64,000 nt of DNA from a bacterium (GTDB lineage Bacteria > Electryoneota > JAOADG01). Below, one piece after another: positions 6,259-58,904 of this stretch. Made by a program: the position numbers and the translations under genes. Under the pieces are notes generated by a model. The model was not told the origin of the DNA. It did not search any database and worked only from the letters and a program-made list of their open reading frames with translations. The stretch's first letter is position 1. Each line of letters opens with the position of its first letter. The DNA lies in NCBI GenBank assembly GCA_963681965.1, contig OY820579.1, positions 672,001-736,000 on the forward strand, written 5' to 3'.

Positions 6259-6482
6259 GTAGAGGCGGACTTCTATGTCCGCCCGTTTTTTTATTCTGTT
6301 CTCTTCGCGGTGGCGCAGGCATCCGAGCCTGCATAAATATTCTTTTCCGTAGGTCAGAATTTATTCTGACCACATCTTGAATTTTTTTGTTTGGCGAGTT
6401 ACAAACCGCCCTTCGGTTCGTTCGTAAACTGACTCAAAATGACAAAAAAGCGGATGAAAGGCGGCCCTGAAGGGCCACCTCC
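6259..6482. repeat. Mosaic cluster of different REP-like hairpins (BIME-like); the first hairpin doubles as the acs terminator
   Basis: GTAG-AGGCGGAC/GTCCGCCC plus T-run (6259-6292); GTGG-CGCAGGC/GCCTGC (6310-6332); GTAG-GTCAGAAT/ATTCTGAC (6349-6370); minus-strand GGAG-GTGGCCCTTCAGGGCCGCC (~6460-6482). Confidence 0.8.
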
Positions 6483-6492
6483 GATTAATCAT

Positions 6493-6610
6493 ATCGTGGT
6501 TATTGAAAAAAAAGTTGTCATGATTCTGTGTCAGGCTTCGCCTGACCTGCGGGAGGCCGCGGTGGGCCTCCCATACTATCCGATGACAAGTTATTTTCAA
6601 GAGATACTAT
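6493..6610. mobile_element. MITE-like element copy A carrying two REP hairpins
   Basis: Near-identical to 20505-20620 (AAGTTGTCATGATTC..GTGTCAGGCTTCGCCTGACCTGCGGG...TTATTTTCAAGAGATACTAT); imperfect terminal inverted repeats. Confidence 0.7.
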
Positions 6611-6615
6611 ATAAC

Positions 6616-6647
6616 AAAAGGGCGGACATCTGCTGTCCGCCCAATTT
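6616..6647 (-). terminator. Intrinsic terminator (REP-like stem) of the 6669-7904 gene
   Basis: GGGCGGACA-tctgc-TGTCCGCCC preceded by AAAA on the + strand (U-tract on the minus strand). Confidence 0.7.
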
Positions 6648-9054: not shown

Positions 9055-9260
9055 TCGCTTGAAAAACTGTTGTTATCGATAGTAGGGGCAGATTCTCGCG
9101 TCCGCCCGCATTCATTTTTCCCCATCCCCACGACCTATCTCCTATCACCCATTTATTCGGAGAGGCGTATGGCAACGCCCAAATCTTGTGTCCAAAAATT
9201 AGGCACGGTTAATTTTGTTCCGTCTCCTTTCTCAGCTAGATCGTAGACGGAAAATTTTCT
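9055..9260. repeat. Half MITE arm plus REP hairpins and a short C-rich repeat cluster
   Basis: CTTGAAAAACTGTTGTTATCGATA-GTAG-GGGCAGATTCTCGCGTCCGCCC (9055-9107) matches the MITE arm; CCTATCTCCTATCACCC (9134-9150); GGAG-AGGCGTATGGCAACGCCC (9159-9180); imperfect AGGCACGG...CCGTCTCCT hairpin. Confidence 0.65.
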
Positions 9261-9337: not shown

Positions 9338-11173
9338 ATGAACTGCTGCCACCGATACCTCCTCTTCCGAATCGCCGTCGCGCTGCTGTGGCTGCTAACG
9401 ATATGCAGTGTGGCGATGGCGCAGCCGCTGCCTTGGCCAGCACCGATTACATGGAATCGACCCGATACGGTCTATCGAACCCGAAGCGATATCGTCTGGA
9501 ATTTCATGTCCAAAGGGGACACATTTGCAGTCGTATGCGAATACAACAATCGTTTCCGTCAAGCATTCGCTAAAGTTATCGTAAGCTCAAATCGTGGTCG
9601 AAGTTGGACACCTGCACACTGCTTTATCGATACCAATTCCAGTCATCATGGCAGTCGACCAGTGCTTGGAATTATTACTTCGCAAGGGGTATTCGTTAAC
9701 GAATACAATGAAACTTCCGACACCTTAAGGCTATACTATTCAACCAATAATGGCATTAGCTGGCAGCGATCTCAGAATCAGTCGGGATATGGTTTCGGTG
9801 TACGATGTTCGCAAGGAGATACCTTAGCAGGGAGTAATTTTTTCAATCGAATTCAAACGCCAGTTTGGACCGTGGATCGTGGGGAAACATACTTTCCACC
9901 TTTCCCTACCGATACCCTTGACGCCGGTGATGAATTTTCGCTCAATGCCGGACAAATGCTGATTGCAGGTCGAAGCACATCCAATCAAGTAAAAGTATAT
10001 TACAAACCGGTTTCTTCGACAACTTTCCAACGGGCAATTATTCCTCACGATACTTATCCGGATTTAGATAATGCATTAATTAAACACAATCATGACGGTT
10101 ATGGGGTATTAGCAATCGACGCATCAAACAGTGTTTTATCATCTTTGACAATCTTAGTGAGTCACACAACCGATTTCGGACGAAGTTGGTCGGATTTCGA
10201 TACGATAAGTCATATAAATATGTCTTCACTTGCTGGCGGTAGACCAAGCTATCTAGGTAATCAAGGAAAATTATTTGCACTTTGTTGGTATGATCGTCAT
10301 CCTTATCTACCGGAATCGCTTGAAGGCGGATATATGGTATCGAGCATCACAGCCAATAACGGTCGGTCATGGTATTTTCCGCAGGATATGTTAATCGAAG
10401 TAGATTCTGCAGGATCAGAACTTACCCAAATTGAATTTCGTGGTGACTCGATCTTTTACAATTATATGGTATCTGTCAACGTAAACATGGTGAACACTTA
10501 CGGTTTTCGAAGTGCTTGCGTGAGAATTTCTGGGTGTATCAATCGCGACACCATCGTCCCGGTTATCAACGAACCAATGGTTTTACCACTAACAATTTCC
10601 CGTCTACAACCAATTTCACTTGCAGCTAGATTCAGCGATAACGACAGCGTATGGCAAACGCAATGTATCATCCGGCGCTCCGGCGATCTTGATTCGGCGA
10701 TCATTGCGCTAACTCGCAACAATACCGATAATTTATATCATGGCAATTGGACACCCTCCGATACCGGCAACTACCAATATTATTATCGCTGCGAAGATAT
10801 GTGGGAGAATGTGAGTCGATTACCCACGAATGCAATGTATCAGACGCGGGTTTTGCCGGTCGAAAATGTCGATCATACTGTTCCGATGGTTCTCACCGAA
10901 GCGATGTTGCGCGTCTTCCCCAATCCGGTGAATGGGATGATTACTTTCACCGGACAGTTGCCTGCGCATTCATCAAACACGCAACTCAAAATCTACAATC
11001 TTACCGGTGCACTGGTCGCATCGCTGCCGATCAAACCCAATGCTATTGGTAGTTATCGCGCATCGTGGGATTGCCGCAATGCGCAAGGGAGTACAGTAGC
11101 ATCGGGAGTGTATTTTGCACAACTCAATACAAGCATGAAAGCAAGTTTGGTGCGGTTTTCTGTGATAAAGTAA
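9338..11173 (+). CDS. Secreted BNR/Asp-box (sialidase-fold) protein with T9SS/FlgD-type C-terminal domain, paralog 1
   Basis: Asp-boxes SSNRGRSW, STNNGISW, TTDFGRSW and TANNGRSW; signal peptide; FPNPVNG...ASGVYFAQL C-terminus. Confidence 0.85.
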   Translation: MNCCHRYLLFRIAVALLWLLTICSVAMAQPLPWPAPITWNRPDTVYRTRSDIVWNFMSKGDTFAVVCEYNNRFRQAFAKVIVSSNRGRSWTPAHCFIDTNSSHHGSRPVLGIITSQGVFVNEYNETSDTLRLYYSTNNGISWQRSQNQSGYGFGVRCSQGDTLAGSNFFNRIQTPVWTVDRGETYFPPFPTDTLDAGDEFSLNAGQMLIAGRSTSNQVKVYYKPVSSTTFQRAIIPHDTYPDLDNALIKHNHDGYGVLAIDASNSVLSSLTILVSHTTDFGRSWSDFDTISHINMSSLAGGRPSYLGNQGKLFALCWYDRHPYLPESLEGGYMVSSITANNGRSWYFPQDMLIEVDSAGSELTQIEFRGDSIFYNYMVSVNVNMVNTYGFRSACVRISGCINRDTIVPVINEPMVLPLTISRLQPISLAARFSDNDSVWQTQCIIRRSGDLDSAIIALTRNNTDNLYHGNWTPSDTGNYQYYYRCEDMWENVSRLPTNAMYQTRVLPVENVDHTVPMVLTEAMLRVFPNPVNGMITFTGQLPAHSSNTQLKIYNLTGALVASLPIKPNAIGSYRASWDCRNAQGSTVASGVYFAQLNTSMKASLVRFSVIK

Positions 11174-11192: not shown

Positions 11193-13031
11193 ATGAATCG
11201 CTTTAATCTTGTTCTAATCGCAGCACTTTTGCTGATTATTGTAGGAATGGCGCAGCCTCGGGAGCTACCGGTCTCGTGGGGTCCGTTCCGTATGCTTTCG
11301 GAGGGAATGCCTAACGGTAGTTATCCTAAATCGGTAGCGGCAAAAGGGGATACGATCGTACTAGTCAAACTTGATATGATTGCCCATCTGCAATATACCT
11401 CCGTTCGCGTTTCGGGAGACAATGGTCGCACTTGGAGTCCTTGGCAGTACTTGAACGATACCACTATTCATCACTTCTCCGAATATCCTGCGCCGATTAT
11501 TACGAACAATAACATCATGGTAATGAATACGAACGCTGAGCTTCCGGAACGGTACGGTTTCTTTCGCACGACCGACCTTGGTCAAAGTTGGATTCGACCG
11601 AGAACAACCTATCATGCAGGTTACTACATGGACGGAACTTCCGGCGATACGATCATCATGAGTAATCCAAATCCGACGATACTGTCGGACTCGGTGACTT
11701 GGGTAACGTCCAATAGCCTGGTACTACAACCCCGGAAGAACTTGTTTTTCGATGTTCCCAATGTTAACTCTCAGTTTCTTTCTTACGGATCGTATTGTGC
11801 CAATCGTCAGTGGATGTTCGGAGTGTGTGGATTCTGCGATTTGGGACCATACTCTGCGACGCTATTGGCATTTCGGCGGATCTCGTACAATGGGCAGATC
11901 GTTGGACCCCTTCACATGCTCATGAACCACATTACCTACCATTTCTATGAAGGTATTGATTTCGATGACGATGGGAATGGTGTGATCTTCGTTGCTTCCG
12001 ACACCATGGGTCCTATTATCGACTATTTTGCAATTACCCGGATTGTTACTCACGATTATGGCGAATCGTGGTCGATTCCGGTCACGATGACACCGGTACT
12101 CTCAGCCGGTCGTTGGAATTATGTGAGTCATTACGGTCATTATTGGGCGATTTGCTGGCAAGACTCTTCGCACGCACCCGACCTCGATCCACTCTATAAC
12201 AGTATGGTAAAAATCTCCTTCTCACCCAATCGCGGACATTATTGGTATCCACCCGTCGAAGCCCCGCTCGGAGATACATCCCTTCTATATCGACGAAATC
12301 TGGCGATAACGATGGGACCGAATTACGTTCGAGTATTCGGTTTTTGTCCACCAGCCGGCGGTTATAGGTTCTATGAAAAGGAGATGATTTTCAATCGCGA
12401 TGCGCGCGCACCGGTGCTCAGCAATGGTACGATCATCCCCTTGTCGGTGTCGACCGACACCACACTGAATCTCGCGCTAACTGCCGTCGACAACGATTCG
12501 ATTTGGAATGCTATCCTCGTCGTAAAACGCATCGGATCGCGAGATTCCCTGATGGATACACTGCGGTACGACTCGCTGAATCGATACACAACTCACTTCA
12601 CCGTACCTACTGACAGTGGCGAATATGCCTACTATTATTTCGCCGAAGATCTTTGGGAAAACCGCGGTTACTATCCCGATAGTGCGCGCACGAATCCACC
12701 ACATTTCCGTGTTGGTGGTGTGAATGTTGTAAAAGAATCGGAGTTGTTACCTCAACAACCGTTACTTTGCGCCTTCCCCAATCCGGTAAACGGTATGATC
12801 ACCTTTACCGGTCAGTTGCCGGCACGCTCATCGACTACGCAACTCCAGATCTACAATCTTACCGGTGCACTGGTCGCATCGCTGCCGATCAAACCCAACA
12901 CTTCCGGTAGTTACCGCGCGATGTGGAATTGTCGAAATCGTTCCGGAACTACTATTGCTTCCGGTGTGTATTATGCCACGTTCGGATCAACCGCAGCACA
13001 CCAGACGCTGAAGTTTGTTGTTATGCGCTAA
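11193..13031 (+). CDS. Secreted BNR/Asp-box protein with T9SS/FlgD-type C-terminal domain, paralog 2
   Basis: SGDNGRTW, TTDLGQSW and THDYGESW; same architecture and C-terminal domain as the upstream gene; ATG 11193 follows GGGAG. Confidence 0.85.
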   Translation: MNRFNLVLIAALLLIIVGMAQPRELPVSWGPFRMLSEGMPNGSYPKSVAAKGDTIVLVKLDMIAHLQYTSVRVSGDNGRTWSPWQYLNDTTIHHFSEYPAPIITNNNIMVMNTNAELPERYGFFRTTDLGQSWIRPRTTYHAGYYMDGTSGDTIIMSNPNPTILSDSVTWVTSNSLVLQPRKNLFFDVPNVNSQFLSYGSYCANRQWMFGVCGFCDLGPYSATLLAFRRISYNGQIVGPLHMLMNHITYHFYEGIDFDDDGNGVIFVASDTMGPIIDYFAITRIVTHDYGESWSIPVTMTPVLSAGRWNYVSHYGHYWAICWQDSSHAPDLDPLYNSMVKISFSPNRGHYWYPPVEAPLGDTSLLYRRNLAITMGPNYVRVFGFCPPAGGYRFYEKEMIFNRDARAPVLSNGTIIPLSVSTDTTLNLALTAVDNDSIWNAILVVKRIGSRDSLMDTLRYDSLNRYTTHFTVPTDSGEYAYYYFAEDLWENRGYYPDSARTNPPHFRVGGVNVVKESELLPQQPLLCAFPNPVNGMITFTGQLPARSSTTQLQIYNLTGALVASLPIKPNTSGSYRAMWNCRNRSGTTIASGVYYATFGSTAAHQTLKFVVMR

Positions 13032-20508: not shown

Positions 20509-20620
20509 TGATTCTTGAAAATAAGTTGTCATGATTCGGTGTCAGGCTTCGCCTGACCTGCGGGCGGACGCGGGGGTCTGCCCCTACTACCGATAACAAC
20601 TTATTTTCAAGAGATACTAT
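20505..20620. mobile_element. MITE-like element copy B (116 bp, 28-bp imperfect TIRs) carrying two REP hairpins
   Basis: Left end ATAGTGATTCTTGAAAATAAGTTGTCAT versus reverse complement of right end ATAGTATCTCTTGAAAATAAGTTGTTAT (24/28 match). Confidence 0.75.
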
Positions 20621-20622
20621 AT

Positions 20623-20651
20623 AAAAAAAGGCGCACTCGCGTGCGCCTTTC
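20623..20651 (-). terminator. Intrinsic terminator of the FadL-like gene
   Basis: AAAAAAAGGCGCAC-TCGC-GTGCGCCTTT. Confidence 0.8.
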
Positions 20652-53206: not shown

Positions 53207-53525
53207 TCCTGTCTCCCAATCAAATGCATCTGATCTACCGAATTATCGACATGTTCGTCGAAATGCAATCGGTGTGTAGTGATAATGTAATACCTATCCA
53301 CAGACAAACAATTCAACTTTTCCAGTGATACAAATATTCGACCAACTCTTATAAATTCAAACTCATCTAAAAATTCGCAATAATGGACAAATATGCTTGA
53401 ACATATGTCCAAAAATAATACAACTATTTGTGATTACAAATAATTATTGTTAACTTTAAGTTCCGATATTTGCTTTGTGTGACGATGTCCAATCTTATGG
53501 CAATGGCTCTTTATTGAGGTGTAGT

Positions 53526-54938
53526 ATGCGAATTTCATTTCGATTTTTCCTCATTACCCTGCTCGGTCTGGCAACAATCGCGTTTGCCGACCCGTGGGAA
53601 TTTAGACTCGACGGAGTCGAAAGTGCTGCCCGCAATATCAATTTTACCAGTGATGGTGGCTATATCATTGCCGGAACCGGTGCGATGTTTAAACTATCAC
53701 CGACCGGATCGTTACTTTGGTCAAGCCCGATCTCCGGCGCCGAAGCCAAACAGACGTGGGACGGCGGATATGTGCTGGTTGGCAATAACAGTTTCATGTC
53801 GGCAATGATTGCCCGGACCGATTCGACCGGCGACACGCTCTGGACCCGGTTGTATGGTCGTTCCCGCACTCGCGCCGATTTTTACAATGTCTTTCCAGCT
53901 CCCGATAGTTGTATTTTGGCGACCGGCTATCACAACGGATCCGCGTATTCACCCTCCGGTGGCAATGGCTGCCTGGTAAAATTCGATCAAAACGGCGACA
54001 CGCTGTGGAACCGCAGTTACGCTTACGGTCAGGAAACCCGTTTTTTTGCTGCTGTGAAAGTGAGCGACGGCTTTCTTATGGCTGGTCGAACGAAAGCGGT
54101 CGGCACTGAAAGCGATTTTAATTTTGTTGCAGTTCGCACAAACGATAATGGCGACACGATCTGGACCGGTATCTACGGTCGCACCGGCAATCAAATCTGT
54201 AACGGTGTTACCGTTTGTTCCGATGGTGGTTTTTTACTTACCGGTAGCACTGATATCACTACTGGCGGTGGAACCACCAAAGATCTCTATTTAGTTAAAA
54301 TAAGTTCTACCGGTGCGTTTCAGTGGGAACAACATTACGGATCCGAAATGTTGGATGAAGTCGGCGAAGCCGTTGCTGCAGATCCGAATGGTGGTTATAT
54401 CGTTACCGGATATGCCGAATTGTCGGGTGTTGCGCCGATGGTTGTGTCACTAATGAAAGTTGATTCGGCGGGCGCTGCTGTTTGGACTTCTGGCTTCGGA
54501 ACAAACTTGTACAATGCCGGTCTCGCGGTGCGGACGCTTAGCGATGGTTCGATTTTGTGCGCTGGATTGCGCGAAGCAAATTTCGTTTTCTACGGCGATG
54601 GCGAGGCGTGGGTGGCTTGTACCAATTCCGACGGTTCGCTTTCGACGCTAGATCCTGCTCACCGCGCATTACCAGTATCTGTCGCGCTGCAACCAGCTTA
54701 TCCGAATCCATTTAATTCGACAACGGTAGTCCGCTATTCACTGCCGCGACAGACGCATGCGCGGATCGAATTATTCAATCTTTATGGTCAACGGGTAGCG
54801 ACATTGCTCGATCGCGATCACGCTGCCGGAAACTATTCGTTATCACTCGACGGCGAGGGATTGGCGGCGGGTACTTATTTTGTGAGGCTTCATACGCCTA
54901 ACCAGAGCGCGACTCAAAAGGTGGTTTTGCTCAAGTAA
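53526..54938 (+). CDS. Secreted beta-propeller repeat protein (GDTLW..YG repeats) with T9SS type-A sorting domain
   Basis: Repeats TDSTGDTLWTRLYG, FDQNGDTLWNRSYA and SDGGFLLTGST; AYPNPFNSTT...AAGTYFVRL...KVVLLK. ATG follows GAGG. Confidence 0.85.
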   Translation: MRISFRFFLITLLGLATIAFADPWEFRLDGVESAARNINFTSDGGYIIAGTGAMFKLSPTGSLLWSSPISGAEAKQTWDGGYVLVGNNSFMSAMIARTDSTGDTLWTRLYGRSRTRADFYNVFPAPDSCILATGYHNGSAYSPSGGNGCLVKFDQNGDTLWNRSYAYGQETRFFAAVKVSDGFLMAGRTKAVGTESDFNFVAVRTNDNGDTIWTGIYGRTGNQICNGVTVCSDGGFLLTGSTDITTGGGTTKDLYLVKISSTGAFQWEQHYGSEMLDEVGEAVAADPNGGYIVTGYAELSGVAPMVVSLMKVDSAGAAVWTSGFGTNLYNAGLAVRTLSDGSILCAGLREANFVFYGDGEAWVACTNSDGSLSTLDPAHRALPVSVALQPAYPNPFNSTTVVRYSLPRQTHARIELFNLYGQRVATLLDRDHAAGNYSLSLDGEGLAAGTYFVRLHTPNQSATQKVVLLK

Positions 54939-54963
54939 CGAGAGAATTCGGTTAACGCCGTGT

Positions 54964-55165
54964 ATAGTGTCTCTTTAAATTAGTTGTTATCGTTAGTATG
55001 GGTGGACCCTCGTGTCCGCCCATTTTGTATCTAGACCCGCTTTGCGAATACATCGTTCGGCTGGTGGCGCAGGCCTCCGAGCCTGCGATTTTTTTGTAGT
55101 ACTGCCGATCTCCGAATCGGCGATTCGCTTCGTTCCCGTAGGTCAGAACTTGTTCTGACCACCTC
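54964..55165. repeat. MITE arm plus REP mosaic, same order of hairpin families as 6259-6373
   Basis: ATAGTGTCTCTTTAAATTAGTTGTTATCG arm; GTAT-GGGTGGAC/GTCCGCCC (54996-55021); GTGG-CGCAGGC/GCCTGCG (55064-55087); GTAG..GCCGAT/ATCGGC (55096-55121); GTAG-GTCAGAAC/GTTCTGAC (55138-55159). Confidence 0.8.
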
Positions 55166-55300
55166 CTGTGTCTCAAATAGAAAACAATTAACGCAGTCTT
55201 AATCCTGCGGCTACAAATTCTCCTTTCACTCATCAATTTGTTTGTAAATACTCTCCATCCACATTATTATTGATATACCACCTGTCCGACCGGAGGCGCC

Positions 55301-58090
55301 ATGAATCTCCATCATCGTTTTCTAAATATATCTCTGCTTGCATTCGCGACGACGCTTATTGTCATCCTCACGCTTCTTCTTCCGCAATCGTCTCATGGCG
55401 TATCGGTGCAATCGACCCGATTGCCGCATCCGTTCCAATTCACCGAGAACAAGGGGCAATGGGATTCTGCGGTCGTGTATAAATGCGAGGTGCAGCGCGA
55501 TGGCTTCACCTGGTTCCTTGAGCGCGATGGTGTCACCCTCGTCACGAGCTTAATTGATTCCTCAAAAATGATAGACGCCAGTAGGGGCGGGCTCCCATGC
55601 CCGCCCATCGATCCTTTTTCCAGTAGGGGCGGACCCCCGTGTCCGCCCCCAAGCGGCAACGATGTTGCCGCCGCAGGGGCGTATGGCATACGCCCTGATC
55701 ATGAATCCTTTCCATTAAAATCTCACGCCCTCAAATTCAAATTTGTCGCATCTGGAGGTGGCGCAGGCCTCCGAGCCTGCGAACGTAGGGGCGAACCACA
55801 AAGTGCTCGCCGAAGGCAATCGCATTCGCCCCTATCCGCTCAAGATGCACCAACCAATCTGGGCGCGTCCGCGCCCACAGGGCGAATGCGATTCGCCCCT
55901 ACAGAAAAATATTCGACACAAGAGGATGTCGGAATAAATTCCGACCTTCGAAAATACACTTGCGCGAAATGGATTGATGCACAGGGGGAATTATCGTGGC
56001 ACAACAATTATTTCCTCGGGAATGACTCATCGAAGTGGGCACCGGATTGCCGGAACTTTACGCGCGTAGTGTATCATGATGTCTGGGATAGCATCGATGT
56101 CGAGTGGTATGAGAGCAAAGGTCATCTCGAATTCGATTTCGTGTTTCATCCCGGTGCCGATCCGAAACAAATCAAAATGGTATGTGAGGGATTGGATGCG
56201 CCAGTAGTAGGCGGAGGACGGACACTCTTGTCCGTAGACTCAATTATTTCTGTCACAAACAGGAGTCGGACAGGAGTGTCCGACCTCCTCTTGTCGAATG
56301 AACTGTCACTCATGACCTCCCTCGGTGAACTCCAGATGTCGATTCCGGGAGCCTACCAATCCACTGCGAATGGAACTCGCGGAAACGCTGTCACGGCACA
56401 ATTCAGACTCGTGTCAGAAAATGTCTTCGCCATCGATTTGCCGAATGGGTATGATGCATCGCAAACGCTTCGAATCGATCCGCTGGTGTATTCAACGTAT
56501 TTGGGGGGATCAGGAAACGACAACGTTTCTGGAATTTGCGAGGGTGGAGTCGATGAAGTGATCGTTACCGGTCAGACTAGTAGTAACAACTATCCTACAA
56601 CAGTTGGAGCAATCCAGGGTGGCTTGATGAGTACCTATTGGGATTGCATTATCACAAAATTGAATTATAACACATCTACACTGATTTATAGTACCTATTT
56701 ATCGATGGGCGTTTGGACTCAGGGAATTGGAATCACTAGCGATGGCAGCAATGGCGCGATTATCTGCGGTGCCTGTTACAACACTATTACTCACGTCGAT
56801 GTGATGTATGCAAGAATCAACTCAACCGGTAATCACTTGATATATAGTGGAACATTAATCGGTGGTTCCGACGATTACGGTTATGCCGTTTGTGGCGATG
56901 GGAATGGGGGGGCGACACTCACCGGTCAGGCTACCAATGGATTTCCCCATACATCAGGTGCATATGATACACTGTTTGGTGGTAGTAACGCATTCGTGAC
57001 AAGAATCAATAACGATGGAGTTATCGTATATAGCACTGCTCTTACAATGTCGACTTGCTACGGAATCGCGAGTGACAATAATGGTGGTGTATTTGTCACA
57101 GGTGGTGCTGGCCGCAATTTTCCGACAACACATGATGCTTTTGATACCACCTATAATGGTGGTTGGGATGCTTTCGTCACGCATTTGAATAGTACTGGTT
57201 CTGCTTTATTGTATAGTACTTTTCTAGGTGGATCAGGTAATGAAAAAGCTTCTGGAGCCGATTGTGATGCATCTGGAAATGTATTCGTAACTGGCTATAC
57301 TTCAAGTGGTAATTTTCCAACAACAATAGGGTGTTTTGACTCATCATATAATGGCGGGCAAAATGATTGTTTTATCACAAAAATCAATCTTATGGGTTCG
57401 CAGTTAGAGTATAGTACTTATTTCGGTAGCTCTGGTGGTGACTGGGGTCAAGCAATTTGTTTGGATGATTCTGGTGGATGTACGGTTACAGGTTATACCG
57501 ACAGTACAGATTTTCCAACTTCAACTGGTGCTTTCGACCGTACGTACCATGGTCGTGGCGATTGTTTTATTACTCATCTGAACAGAAATGGGTCGATGAT
57601 TTCTTATAGTACATATTTGGGAGGCTCTATCAATGATATGGGGTACGGAATAATGAAGAGTGGTTCTGATAGAGTCATAGTAGCTGGAATAACCAATAGT
57701 CCTGAATTTCCACGCACAACGGGAGCTTTTGATACAGTTTATCATGATAGTTATGACTGTTTCATTACTCAACTTAGATTGACTCCAGATTCAAATGAGG
57801 CTGTAATAGAGAATCATTTGATACCAACAGGTGTTTCTCTCTCACATAACTACCCGAATCCATTCAATTCCTCCACCACGCTCTCTTATTCGCTTCCGCA
57901 CGCTTCGATGGTTGAGCTGAAGTTGTTCGATCTCACCGGTCGCGAAATCTTGACGCTCGTAAATCAAAGACAGAATGCGGGTAGTTATCGCATTCATTTC
58001 GATGGTTCTCATTTAACATCAGGTACCTATTTTCTCCGCATGAAAGCTGGTCAATTTTCTCAAACTCGAAAGATTGTCCTGCTCAAATAA
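55301..58090 (+). CDS. Secreted SBBP-repeat beta-propeller protein (DUF7948-like N-domain, T9SS CTD) with in-frame REP insertions
   Basis: FTENKGQW...NYFLGND..KW...LEFDFVFHPGADP...LRIDPLVYSTYLGGSG N-domain; YSTYLGG and FPTT.GAFD repeats; NYPNPFNSST CTD; GGAGG RBS. Confidence 0.9.
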   Translation: MNLHHRFLNISLLAFATTLIVILTLLLPQSSHGVSVQSTRLPHPFQFTENKGQWDSAVVYKCEVQRDGFTWFLERDGVTLVTSLIDSSKMIDASRGGLPCPPIDPFSSRGGPPCPPPSGNDVAAAGAYGIRPDHESFPLKSHALKFKFVASGGGAGLRACERRGEPQSARRRQSHSPLSAQDAPTNLGASAPTGRMRFAPTEKYSTQEDVGINSDLRKYTCAKWIDAQGELSWHNNYFLGNDSSKWAPDCRNFTRVVYHDVWDSIDVEWYESKGHLEFDFVFHPGADPKQIKMVCEGLDAPVVGGGRTLLSVDSIISVTNRSRTGVSDLLLSNELSLMTSLGELQMSIPGAYQSTANGTRGNAVTAQFRLVSENVFAIDLPNGYDASQTLRIDPLVYSTYLGGSGNDNVSGICEGGVDEVIVTGQTSSNNYPTTVGAIQGGLMSTYWDCIITKLNYNTSTLIYSTYLSMGVWTQGIGITSDGSNGAIICGACYNTITHVDVMYARINSTGNHLIYSGTLIGGSDDYGYAVCGDGNGGATLTGQATNGFPHTSGAYDTLFGGSNAFVTRINNDGVIVYSTALTMSTCYGIASDNNGGVFVTGGAGRNFPTTHDAFDTTYNGGWDAFVTHLNSTGSALLYSTFLGGSGNEKASGADCDASGNVFVTGYTSSGNFPTTIGCFDSSYNGGQNDCFITKINLMGSQLEYSTYFGSSGGDWGQAICLDDSGGCTVTGYTDSTDFPTSTGAFDRTYHGRGDCFITHLNRNGSMISYSTYLGGSINDMGYGIMKSGSDRVIVAGITNSPEFPRTTGAFDTVYHDSYDCFITQLRLTPDSNEAVIENHLIPTGVSLSHNYPNPFNSSTTLSYSLPHASMVELKLFDLTGREILTLVNQRQNAGSYRIHFDGSHLTSGTYFLRMKAGQFSQTRKIVLLK
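55581..55696. repeat. Intragenic REP block 1 (four hairpins)
   Basis: GTAG-GGGCGGGC/GCCCGCCC (55581-55606); GTAG-GGGCGGAC/GTCCGCCC (55623-55648); GCGGCAAC/GTTGCCGC (55653-55671); GCAG-GGGCGTAT/ATACGCCC (55673-55695). Confidence 0.85.
55757..55947. repeat. Intragenic REP block 2 (five hairpins or doublets)
   Basis: GTGG-CGCAGGC/GCCTGCG (55758-55781); TAGGGGCGAA...TTCGCCCCTA doublet (55786-55834); TGGGCGCG/CGCGCCCA (55860-55877); GGGCGAAT/ATTCGCCC-CTAC (55880-55902); GTCGGAAT/ATTCCGAC (55928-55945). Confidence 0.85.
56213..56288. repeat. Intragenic REP block 3 (inverted GGAG-type doublet, REPIN-like)
   Basis: GGAG-GACGGACACTCTTGTCCGT facing GTCGGACAGGAGTGTCCGAC-CTCC. Confidence 0.8.
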
Positions 58091-58212
58091 TCAGTCCCAA
58101 CAGTTCACTCTCGACGATGTTTCAAGGTTAAACAACCATGAGTAGCAGGAGGATATTTTTGCATTGCCGGTACCGTGAACTGCGGTCTTTCGATACCTGC
58201 GTGAGGCGCGCT

Positions 58213-58266
58213 AAAAAAATGAAAACGGTACGAGATAGCTCCGTTACGAGTTCTCATACCGTTCTC
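58213..58266 (-). terminator. Terminator downstream of tRNA-Pro
   Basis: AACGGTACGAGA...TCTCATACCGTT imperfect long stem, with A-runs on the + strand left side (U-tract on the minus strand). Confidence 0.6.
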
Positions 58267-58303
58267 AATATGTATTTGGAGGTGTTATCACCTCATTCGA
58301 AAA

Positions 58304-58380
58304 TGGTCGGGGAGACTGGATTTGAACCAGCGACCCTCTGCTCCCAAAGCAGATGCGCTACCGGGCTGCGCTACTCCCCG
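58304..58380 (-). tRNA. tRNA-Pro (UGG)
   Basis: Minus strand CGGGGAGTAGCGCAGCCCGGTAGCGCATCTGCTTTGGGAGCAGAGGGTCGCTGGTTCAAATCCAGTCTCCCCGACCA: 77 nt, full cloverleaf, encoded CCA. Confidence 0.97.
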
Positions 58381-58406
58381 AAAAAGGGTATTCAACAAAA
58401 TATCAA

Positions 58407-58671
58407 GCTGGGAACCAGCGACCAAAGAAACTCCCGAAAGCAGATGCGCTACCGGGCTGCGCTATTCCCCTGAAAAACAGGTGTTGGGTGATAGGGCTTG
58501 GGGGCTGGGAAAGAACTAAAAGATCGAACCAGCGTCCCTCAGAAAACCCCGAATGCTGATGCGCTACCGAGCTACGCTATTCCCCTGAAAAACAGGTGTT
58601 GGGTGATAGGGTTTGGGGACTGGGAAAGAACAAAAGATCGAACTAGCGTCCCTCAGAAAACCCTGACAGCA
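58407..58671 (-). repeat. Tandem ~114-115 bp repeats containing decayed tRNA-Pro copies
   Basis: GAAC(C/T)AGCG recurs at 58324 (tRNA), 58412, 58526 and 58640; GATGCGCTACCG(G/A)GCT(G/A)CGCTATTCCCC at 58443 and 58558; shared G-rich linker. Confidence 0.85.
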
Positions 58672-58904
58672 GTTGTTTGATTACACCGCTTCACCAATTA
58701 TCAGCGAGTGAAGATAACAAAGATCGCCAGCATCTGCAAGAATTCGATTATTATTGGTATTCAAACCCCAATTTTACTTTATAAGTGATCCTTGATGTTT
58801 GAGAAAAAAATAACTTGATCGCTTTCTATTGATATATCGCACACCATTTGCTATTATCCGATAAATAATTTAACCCGCAACTTCACTTAAAAATTGGGAA
58901 GATT

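Follow-up and report, generated by a model that had tools for sequence, protein, structure and literature searches.

We analysed a window of 64,000 nucleotides (nt) from a bacterium of the phylum Electryoneota (contig OY820579.1, positions 672,001 to 736,000, assembly GCA_963681965.1), and in it a gene for a secreted protein that carries palindromes of the repetitive extragenic palindromic (REP) kind in frame within its coding sequence. The window belongs to a complete, single-contig genome of 4.24 Mb, in which all genome-wide counts given below were made; gene calls for these censuses followed a simple longest-open-reading-frame heuristic. The gene is an uninterrupted open reading frame (ORF) of 929 amino acids (aa) on the forward strand, whose translation scores above the Pfam cut-offs for DUF7948 (134.3 bits against 27), SBBP (29.4 against 20.5) and Por_Secre_tail (42.9 against 27). 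Its N-terminal part alternates between framework segments (F1, F2, F3) and variable sites (V1, V2, V3), as defined from an alignment of 20 paralog N-termini. The features are as follows (positions in the window; REPIN, REP doublet forming hairpin; T9SS, type IX secretion system; pLDDT, predicted local distance difference test):

55301 to 58090, + strand: gene, with signal peptide, DUF7948 N-domain, SBBP beta-propeller repeats and T9SS C-terminal sorting domain
55400 to 55549, + strand: F1 framework, 150 nt, without an indel in 20 paralogs and with codon-periodic evolution
55550 to 55717, + strand: V1 variable site, 168 nt here, 78-249 nt in paralogs, low pLDDT
55585-55606, 55626-55649, 55653-55671 and 55677-55695, + strand: four perfect REP hairpins of V1 (hairpin scan)
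55718 to 55744, + strand: conserved 9-codon strand separating V1 and V2 (paralog alignment, predicted structure)
55745 to 55981, + strand: V2 variable site, 237 nt here, 81-402 nt in paralogs
55762-55782, 55860-55877, 55880-55898 and 55928-55945, + strand: hairpins of V2 (hairpin scan)
55786-55834, + strand: nested element of V2, its inner 24-nt insert missing from some paralogs
55982 to 56194, + strand: F2 framework, 213 nt (paralog alignment)
56195 to 56317, + strand: V3 variable site, 123 nt here, 48 nt in the insert-free paralog
56213-56234 and 56267-56288, + strand: arms of the REPIN-like doublet of V3 (inverted repeats)
56318 to 56497, + strand: F3 framework, 180 nt (paralog alignment)
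56498 to 58087, + strand: propeller part (SBBP) and, at aa 851-926, the T9SS sorting domain (Pfam)
54993-55021, 55063-55088 and 55141-55160 (span 54993 to 55160, no strand assigned): upstream intergenic REPs, of the same families as in the gene (sequence)

An earlier, sequence-only reading of the window had placed about ten hairpins in three blocks of an intact gene and had proposed that REPs are tolerated or co-opted there at three permissive loops. Eleven inverted-repeat pairs lie between 55500 and 56350, none of them outside the blocks, and the odd peptides that had been quoted for the blocks are indeed found in the translation. Perfect hairpins with a stem of at least 8 number eight in 55585-56284; the 850-nt bin that holds the hairpins of the gene, with 7 perfect ones against a genome mean of 0.36 per bin, falls within the 7 densest of some 5,000 bins. 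The figure of roughly 380 bp given for the inserted sequence holds for the span of the blocks, whereas the excess over the shortest paralog is 321 nt (V1 +90, V2 +156, V3 +75).

REP identity and the host gene family

A 9-nt head of the GTAG type occurs in 427 copies in the genome, 301 of them outside ORF cover, where the non-ORF portion makes up 12% of the genome. TAG is by far the most frequent 3-mer beside perfect hairpins genome-wide (389 occurrences), and a GTAG or TAG head stands directly before the hairpins at 55585-55606, 55626-55649 and 55677-55695. The units that form the hairpins of V1 and V2 are members of families that number 45-132 copies across the genome, the majority of them outside DUF7948-family genes. 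The unit at 55757-55782 (hairpin family D7) had been matched to the intergenic 55063-55088, and the two are identical over all 26 nt; looser resemblances, of 55673-55695 to 9159-9180 and of 55928-55947 to 6351-6370, also hold, with 24 of 34 and 18 of 32 alignment columns identical. The broader claim, that the hairpins of the gene share the intergenic families, is borne out for the V1 and V2 units but not for the commonest V3 doublet, which is restricted to the gene family, though its single arms occur elsewhere.

REP elements of this type are associated with REP-associated tyrosine transposases (RAYTs), which the earlier reading had suggested looking for, and RAYT genes flanked by REP doublets are present in the genome. 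The RAYT model NF047646 (cut-off 80 bits) picks out two small ORFs, at 94 and 79 bits, the first with REP doublets on both sides and the second with a doublet upstream; two further candidates are weaker. The REP types beside the RAYTs also turn up at V2 in most paralogs and at V3 in a single paralog; no RAYT in the genome was found to be flanked by the most frequent head type. The two best RAYT genes (C1:526681-527085 and C1:529684-530088) lie on the same strand, 3 kb apart, each tied to a different REP type; their distances to the paralog at C1:520355-523297 are about 3.4 and 6.4 kb. Three hallmarks of GTAG-type REPs are found here: GC-rich palindromes with a GTAG end, high copy number with a mostly extragenic location, and a REP-flanked RAYT. 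Judged by these features, we take the blocks to consist of true GTAG-headed REPs and probable REPINs, or of elements closely derived from them.

Of the 28 loci of the genome that encode DUF7948, 19 are full-length close paralogs, 6 are broken or truncated and 3 are distant members; in-frame REP arrays at the three sites are carried by about 25 of these genes. The full-length paralogs are ORFs of 853-1036 aa, each with a signal peptide and a sorting domain. In the family loci the DUF7948 profile is often split by the inserts, near its positions 74 and 148, so profile-based annotation may mis-score such genes. When the 20 N-termini are aligned, a near-invariant framework (F1, the 9-codon strand, F2 and F3) is broken by V1, V2 and V3, whose lengths range over 78-249, 81-402 and 48-237 nt, the longest V2 amounting to 134 codons. 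These sites are built of common cassettes, combined differently in each paralog, and they contain 88 of the 94 perfect hairpins of the 20 paralogs, at 8-12.5 per kb, against 0.13 per kb in the propeller part. V3 comes in six length classes (48, 114, 117, 123, 216 and 237 nt), made from different hairpin families. One close paralog has no V3 insert (48 versus 123 nt), no REPs in V2, and a minimal V1 and V2. In a pseudogene paralog (L025, C1:1543063-1545439) a transposase-like ORF of 292 aa, which is still open where the locus ends, separates F1 from the rest; it adjoins REP-coded sequence, and the V3 interval of this copy is out of frame (44 nt).

The restriction to this family is pronounced. 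Among the 663 repeated GC-rich perfect hairpins of the genome, 434 are intergenic and 102 lie in family genes; the remainder comprises 108 in ORFs of 100-299 aa, which are probably spurious, and 19 in other ORFs of at least 300 aa. Sixteen of these 19, in 11 ORFs, occupy the extreme N- or C-terminus of the ORF. Of the other three, two share a single doubtful ORF, and the last is in a 357-aa ORF beside a paralog, about 60 aa short of that ORF's end. Internal REPs in bona fide genes are therefore confined, in this genome, to the DUF7948 family.

The same three sites are used elsewhere in the clade. The family is present in 12 of the 41 genomes searched, the present one included, and the nearest named relatives are metagenome-assembled genomes (MAGs) labelled Caldithrix, at 32-34% identity, with Calditrichota as a tentative placement. 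Homologs from other uncultured bacteria carry different REP-like peptides at the same three sites. At the DNA level, a homolog from elsewhere in the phylum, in another family, bears perfect hairpins at V1 and V3, one of them similar to an intergenic hairpin that lies upstream, and the paralogs of a genome from another genus (G003) have in-frame hairpin arrays at the same loops, one V3 array reaching about 250 aa. In two of the latter (L131, L132) V2 also holds tandem 7-residue peptide repeats besides hairpins; the loops therefore accept other repeat expansions too. In a genome of the same genus, the V3 insert of one paralog finds 18 matches, many of them at contig ends. In distant homologs V2 and V3 are free of inserts. 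Homologs from REP-free genomes with the same segments would have told against the earlier reading; those of distant lineages lack the segments. That reading had also anticipated variation at exactly these positions, with differing REP combinations in multiples of three nucleotides; the variation was found in paralogs and outgroups, and the combinations in paralogs and related genomes, with 50 of 53 intervals in frame.

Reading frame, predicted loops and conservation of the blocks

The frame was surveyed by tblastn with the framework sequence, irrespective of the frame of the hits. The frame is preserved across F1-F2 at 24 of 26 loci, in 21 different lengths, and across F2-F3 at 26 of 27. Were one length class in three in frame by chance, at least 21 of 23 would be so with a probability of 1e-8, a value that overstates independence, the copies being related. 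All three out-of-frame cases arise within V sites (two in V1/V2, one in V3), and of the 44 heads that the 20 paralogs contain, not one is placed in the single frame that would read a stop. Frameshifts are thus far rarer than the chance level that would have spoken against the earlier reading. Two further measures were taken: the clean indels with conserved flanks fall into four length classes (12, 18, 24 and 72 nt), all multiples of three, but come from intact genes and hence are no independent test, and the spacing between neighbouring hairpins, a weak measure, is a multiple of three in 30 of 50 cases in the family versus 79 of 208 elsewhere. The 543-nt framework has no indel in the 20 paralogs, a ratio of nonsynonymous to synonymous divergence (dN/dS) of 0.08 with dS 0.77, and variable sites that, in all three segments, are mostly third codon positions; the genes are therefore functional and old. 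Taken together, these counts indicate that purifying selection keeps the frame of the REP-bearing intervals, and the proposed tolerance of REPs at three permissive loops is observed along with selection for frame.

The inserts also coincide with loops of the predicted structure. An AlphaFold2 model of residues 34-420, built on a 64-row alignment, assigns the framework strands a pLDDT above 90 and V1, V2 and V3 values of about 35-75, mostly 35-56. The three sites are accordingly predicted as disordered loops between confident strands, as the earlier reading had supposed. A Foldseek search against the PDB returned nothing at E 0.001 or better, only weak matches to the N-terminal beta-sandwich domains of glycoside hydrolase family 92 (GH92) and GH97 enzymes.

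Within these loops, conservation follows the nucleotide sequence. Over the 15 paralogs with a 123-nt V3, third-codon-position identity is 0.60 in the last 30 nt of F2 and 0.59 in the first 15 nt of V3, rises to 0.95-0.97 in the doublet core, and then falls to 0.76 and 0.60. In the core the three codon positions are conserved alike, and the stems are 99% identical, with no compensatory changes. Third-position identity likewise reaches 0.88 in V1 and 0.93 in V2, where the framework of those pairs has 0.68, and divergence in the V blocks has no codon periodicity. This pattern indicates conservation of the REP blocks as DNA, not as protein. The V3 doublet has 22-nt arms, 91% complementary and 32 nt apart, and would fold as RNA at -50 kcal/mol (z -6.0). 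Its full-length copies number 17, all at V3 of family genes; elsewhere in the genome, and in three relatives, only single arms occur. For this commonest V3 doublet the distribution of copies does not bear out the REP traffic that the earlier reading proposed.

The paralogs have also exchanged sequence. Pairwise profiles are mosaics: 27 of 190 pairs have exact tracts of at least 100 nt in common, 30 in all and up to 1086 nt long, and some of these tracts cross V sites. The N-terminal framework is 90-94% identical in amino acids within the genome versus 47-50% to the best foreign homolog, whereas the propeller parts of several paralogs are only 37-46% identical to one another and 40-45% to foreign proteins; the REP-hosting N-domain therefore evolves in concert within the genome. 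This high identity points to concerted evolution or to exchange of an N-terminal module. Whether V sites serve as conversion breakpoints was examined through framework-segment distances, which are nearly uncorrelated even within a segment, and through four-gamete violations, which already reach 54% at less than 15 nt, saturation of constrained third positions possibly contributing; neither test, applied to the paralogs, recovered a specific breakpoint role of the V sites.

Parts of the window were found in five public runs from two studies, none of the matching runs being an RNA run. Contigs from these runs, which may include the source sample, match 55601-55700 with one mismatch and 55714-55923 and 56179-56290 exactly. 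Apparent joints in the short contigs match other paralogs; a skip of 55743-55914, for instance, gives the letters of a paralog whose V2 is the short one.

As to the surroundings, two of the upstream intergenic REPs are T-tailed and terminator-like for the upstream gene. The copies inside the 929-aa gene have no T-tail on the sense strand, and a terminator scan found no sense-strand terminator-like site within the ORF. The upstream neighbour (53475-54938) is a 487-aa protein with a T9SS sorting domain, no DUF7948 and an internal repeat of about 160 nt; it is free of REPs inside, the T-tailed REPs following its stop codon. Rfam matched only a tRNA in 54800-58800. Beyond a tRNA-Pro gene (58304-58380, - strand) lie two incomplete duplicates of its 3' part (58426-58520 and 58541-58635, 81-91% alike), which resemble remnants of repeated integration at this tRNA. 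A REP-containing module of about 115 nt is present twice in the window (6507-6621 and 20518-20631, 88-93% alike), as is a 208-nt repeat (10911-11118 and 12769-12976, 79% alike).

Competing explanations

We consider it probable that REP arrays were seeded at three permissive loops, where they turn over while gene conversion reshuffles them and selection on a working surface protein filters them for frame. The seeding at the V1-V3 loops would have taken place in the family ancestor, and the arrays would since have grown, shrunk and been exchanged. New units would join existing REPs, including by nested insertion into the loop of a hairpin, while gene conversion among paralogs would spread and reshuffle the cassettes. 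Purifying selection on the protein would remove variants that break the frame or add a stop, leaving in-frame mosaics as survivors. The REP-coded peptides may then be passengers in floppy loops, devoid of function, with the REP DNA sequence presumably kept for reasons that act on nucleic acid and not on the peptide, and RAYT-dependent turnover may well continue at the V sites.

Several points weigh against this reading. The blocks are more conserved than passengers should be, and their edges are sharp; such conservation needs selection on DNA or RNA, or homogenisation precise to the element, and leans to co-option. Outside the family the commonest V3 doublet is never found at full length, and therefore it is not a member of any intergenic family. 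That REPs are hosted by this family only is explained by ancestral seeding, which is assumed, and both the movement of REPs at the V sites and the expression of the inserts are presumed. Copies related by descent enter the count of in-frame intervals, so that there are fewer events than loci. Finally, the proteins of all 19 full-length paralogs are listed on two contigs with identical sequences, in assemblies that are possibly non-independent, and there is therefore no sign of fast change.

It is possible, if doubtful, that the in-frame REP and REPIN blocks have been co-opted as selected cis-elements. They could be substrates for cassette exchange or on/off switching, mediated by RAYTs or by recombination, that diversify three exposed loops; or they could act as mRNA hairpins controlling the translation, stability or export of the family transcripts. 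The sharply bounded nucleotide conservation with its near-identical stems fits such a role, as do the strong fold and family-exclusive occurrence of the V3 doublet, the lineage-specific hairpins at the same three loops across genera and families, and the 21 distinct F1-F2 lengths among 24 in-frame loci. Three of the broken copies are broken within V sites, as on/off switching would give, and the two best RAYT genes lie close to one paralog. Yet within-population variation was not seen in the public-run contigs, which are short and paralog-mixed, and the paralog proteins of the two assemblies do not differ. The peptides resemble low-complexity disordered sequence with no codon-level constraint, and the uniformity of the REPs may merely reflect the forces that keep all REPs of the genome alike. 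Moreover, we know of no mechanism by which a RAYT would exchange elements in frame. Its boldest form, in which the blocks would be selected nucleic-acid elements, either clade-wide RAYT-serviced cassettes that rewrite or switch the loops or hairpins that gate translation, is in our view unlikely; if true, these would be the first REPs domesticated for protein diversification, in a clade whose nearest named relatives are the Caldithrix MAGs.

We find it quite improbable that the inserts are fossils, that is, that a few ancestral REP insertions were diversified by duplication, deletion and conversion between paralogs, with no present REP mobility at these sites. The mosaic exact tracts do prove gene conversion, the cassettes are modular and common to paralogs, and the V3 doublet was inherited or spread only within the family. 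However, a genic unit is identical over 26 of 26 nt to an intergenic copy 694 nt upstream, in a family whose dS is 0.77; the V1 and V2 units come from several genome-wide families; and the six V3 length classes draw on different hairpin families. Relatives have their own lineage-specific REP types at the same sites, which requires replacement after the lineages split. An accidental open frame, a set of pseudogenes or an assembly chimera is highly implausible, for although 6 of 25 close family loci are broken or truncated and no RNA run was found among the matching public runs, the low dN/dS and third-position variation of the framework, the 19 full-length ORFs with signal peptide and sorting domain, the same architecture in other genomes and the public-run contigs that match parts of the V blocks (source sample possibly included) all speak against it.

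The arrays are of interest beyond this gene. By definition REPs are extragenic, and what they do is still under debate; here about 15% of the repeated perfect hairpins of a genome lie in the coding sequence of one surface-protein family. The family thus offers a natural system in which to ask what keeps REPs uniform, whether RAYTs act at pre-existing REPs, and whether selfish palindromes can serve as raw material for the variation of surface proteins. For annotation, the low-complexity peptides at these loops are REP translations.

Relation to known systems

Intragenic REPs as such are already known. The earlier reading had taken the Rickettsia palindromic elements (RPEs) for the main precedent, but the precedent is wider: the article text of Di Nocera et al. 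(2013, PMC3733652) describes intragenic GTAG and CGTC REPs in several species, with dimers or groups that encode 20-30 aa and clusters that encode 43-82 aa. According to that text, which itself cites the Rickettsia elements, some ORFs were hit twice, the insertions were interpreted as tolerated, and the hosts are unrelated, many of them DNA-repair genes. Our elements resemble those described there in being GTAG-headed palindromes wholly within ORFs of known proteins. They differ in that the REPs reported in that text come as one or two inserts per gene, whereas here 102 of 663 repeated hairpins fall to one paralogous family, at three shared loops, in arrays of up to 134 codons that are modular, recurrent across genera and conserved at the nucleotide level. 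In the literature on intragenic REPs or palindromes, REPIN/RAYT systems and Caldithrix, PMC3733652 supplements excluded, we found neither REP arrays confined to fixed loops of one family nor nucleotide-level conservation of genic REPs; the part of the Caldithrix abyssi genome paper that was considered mentions only an 18-nt intergenic palindrome (PMC5317091).

Our elements share with the Rickettsia RPEs the in-frame placement of palindromes in loops, a likeness at the level of function. RPEs are palindromic repeats found in frame in apparently functional genes, thought to lie at surface-exposed, permissive places of the protein; they are longer elements of an obligate intracellular alphaproteobacterium, spread over many unrelated genes, usually one per gene, and are not known to be tied to a RAYT. 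Here, by contrast, short GTAG REPs are arrayed within one gene family, in an uncultured lineage that is free-living.

REPIN/RAYT systems and arrays of the bacterial interspersed mosaic element (BIME) type are known as extragenic, with doublets that form long hairpins, REP-flanked RAYTs, mosaic clusters and uniform copies. The present blocks have long-hairpin doublets, REP-flanked RAYTs, mosaic arrays and strong copy uniformity in common with them, but are translated and restricted in length to multiples of three.

Surface-protein families that vary by gene conversion, such as pilE/pilS, vlsE and tprK, offer a third comparison. As in those, there are many paralogs, mosaic exact tracts, a framework with discrete variable regions, and a secreted or surface protein. 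Antigenic variation in the sense of one expression locus served by silent donor cassettes is not what we find: the 19 paralogs are full-length genes, and such an arrangement is therefore not evident. Furthermore, the variable regions here consist of genome-wide mobile palindromes and not of family-specific coding cassettes. What is unusual in the system described here is the scale and order of its intragenic REPs, and their concentration at three fixed loops of one protein family.

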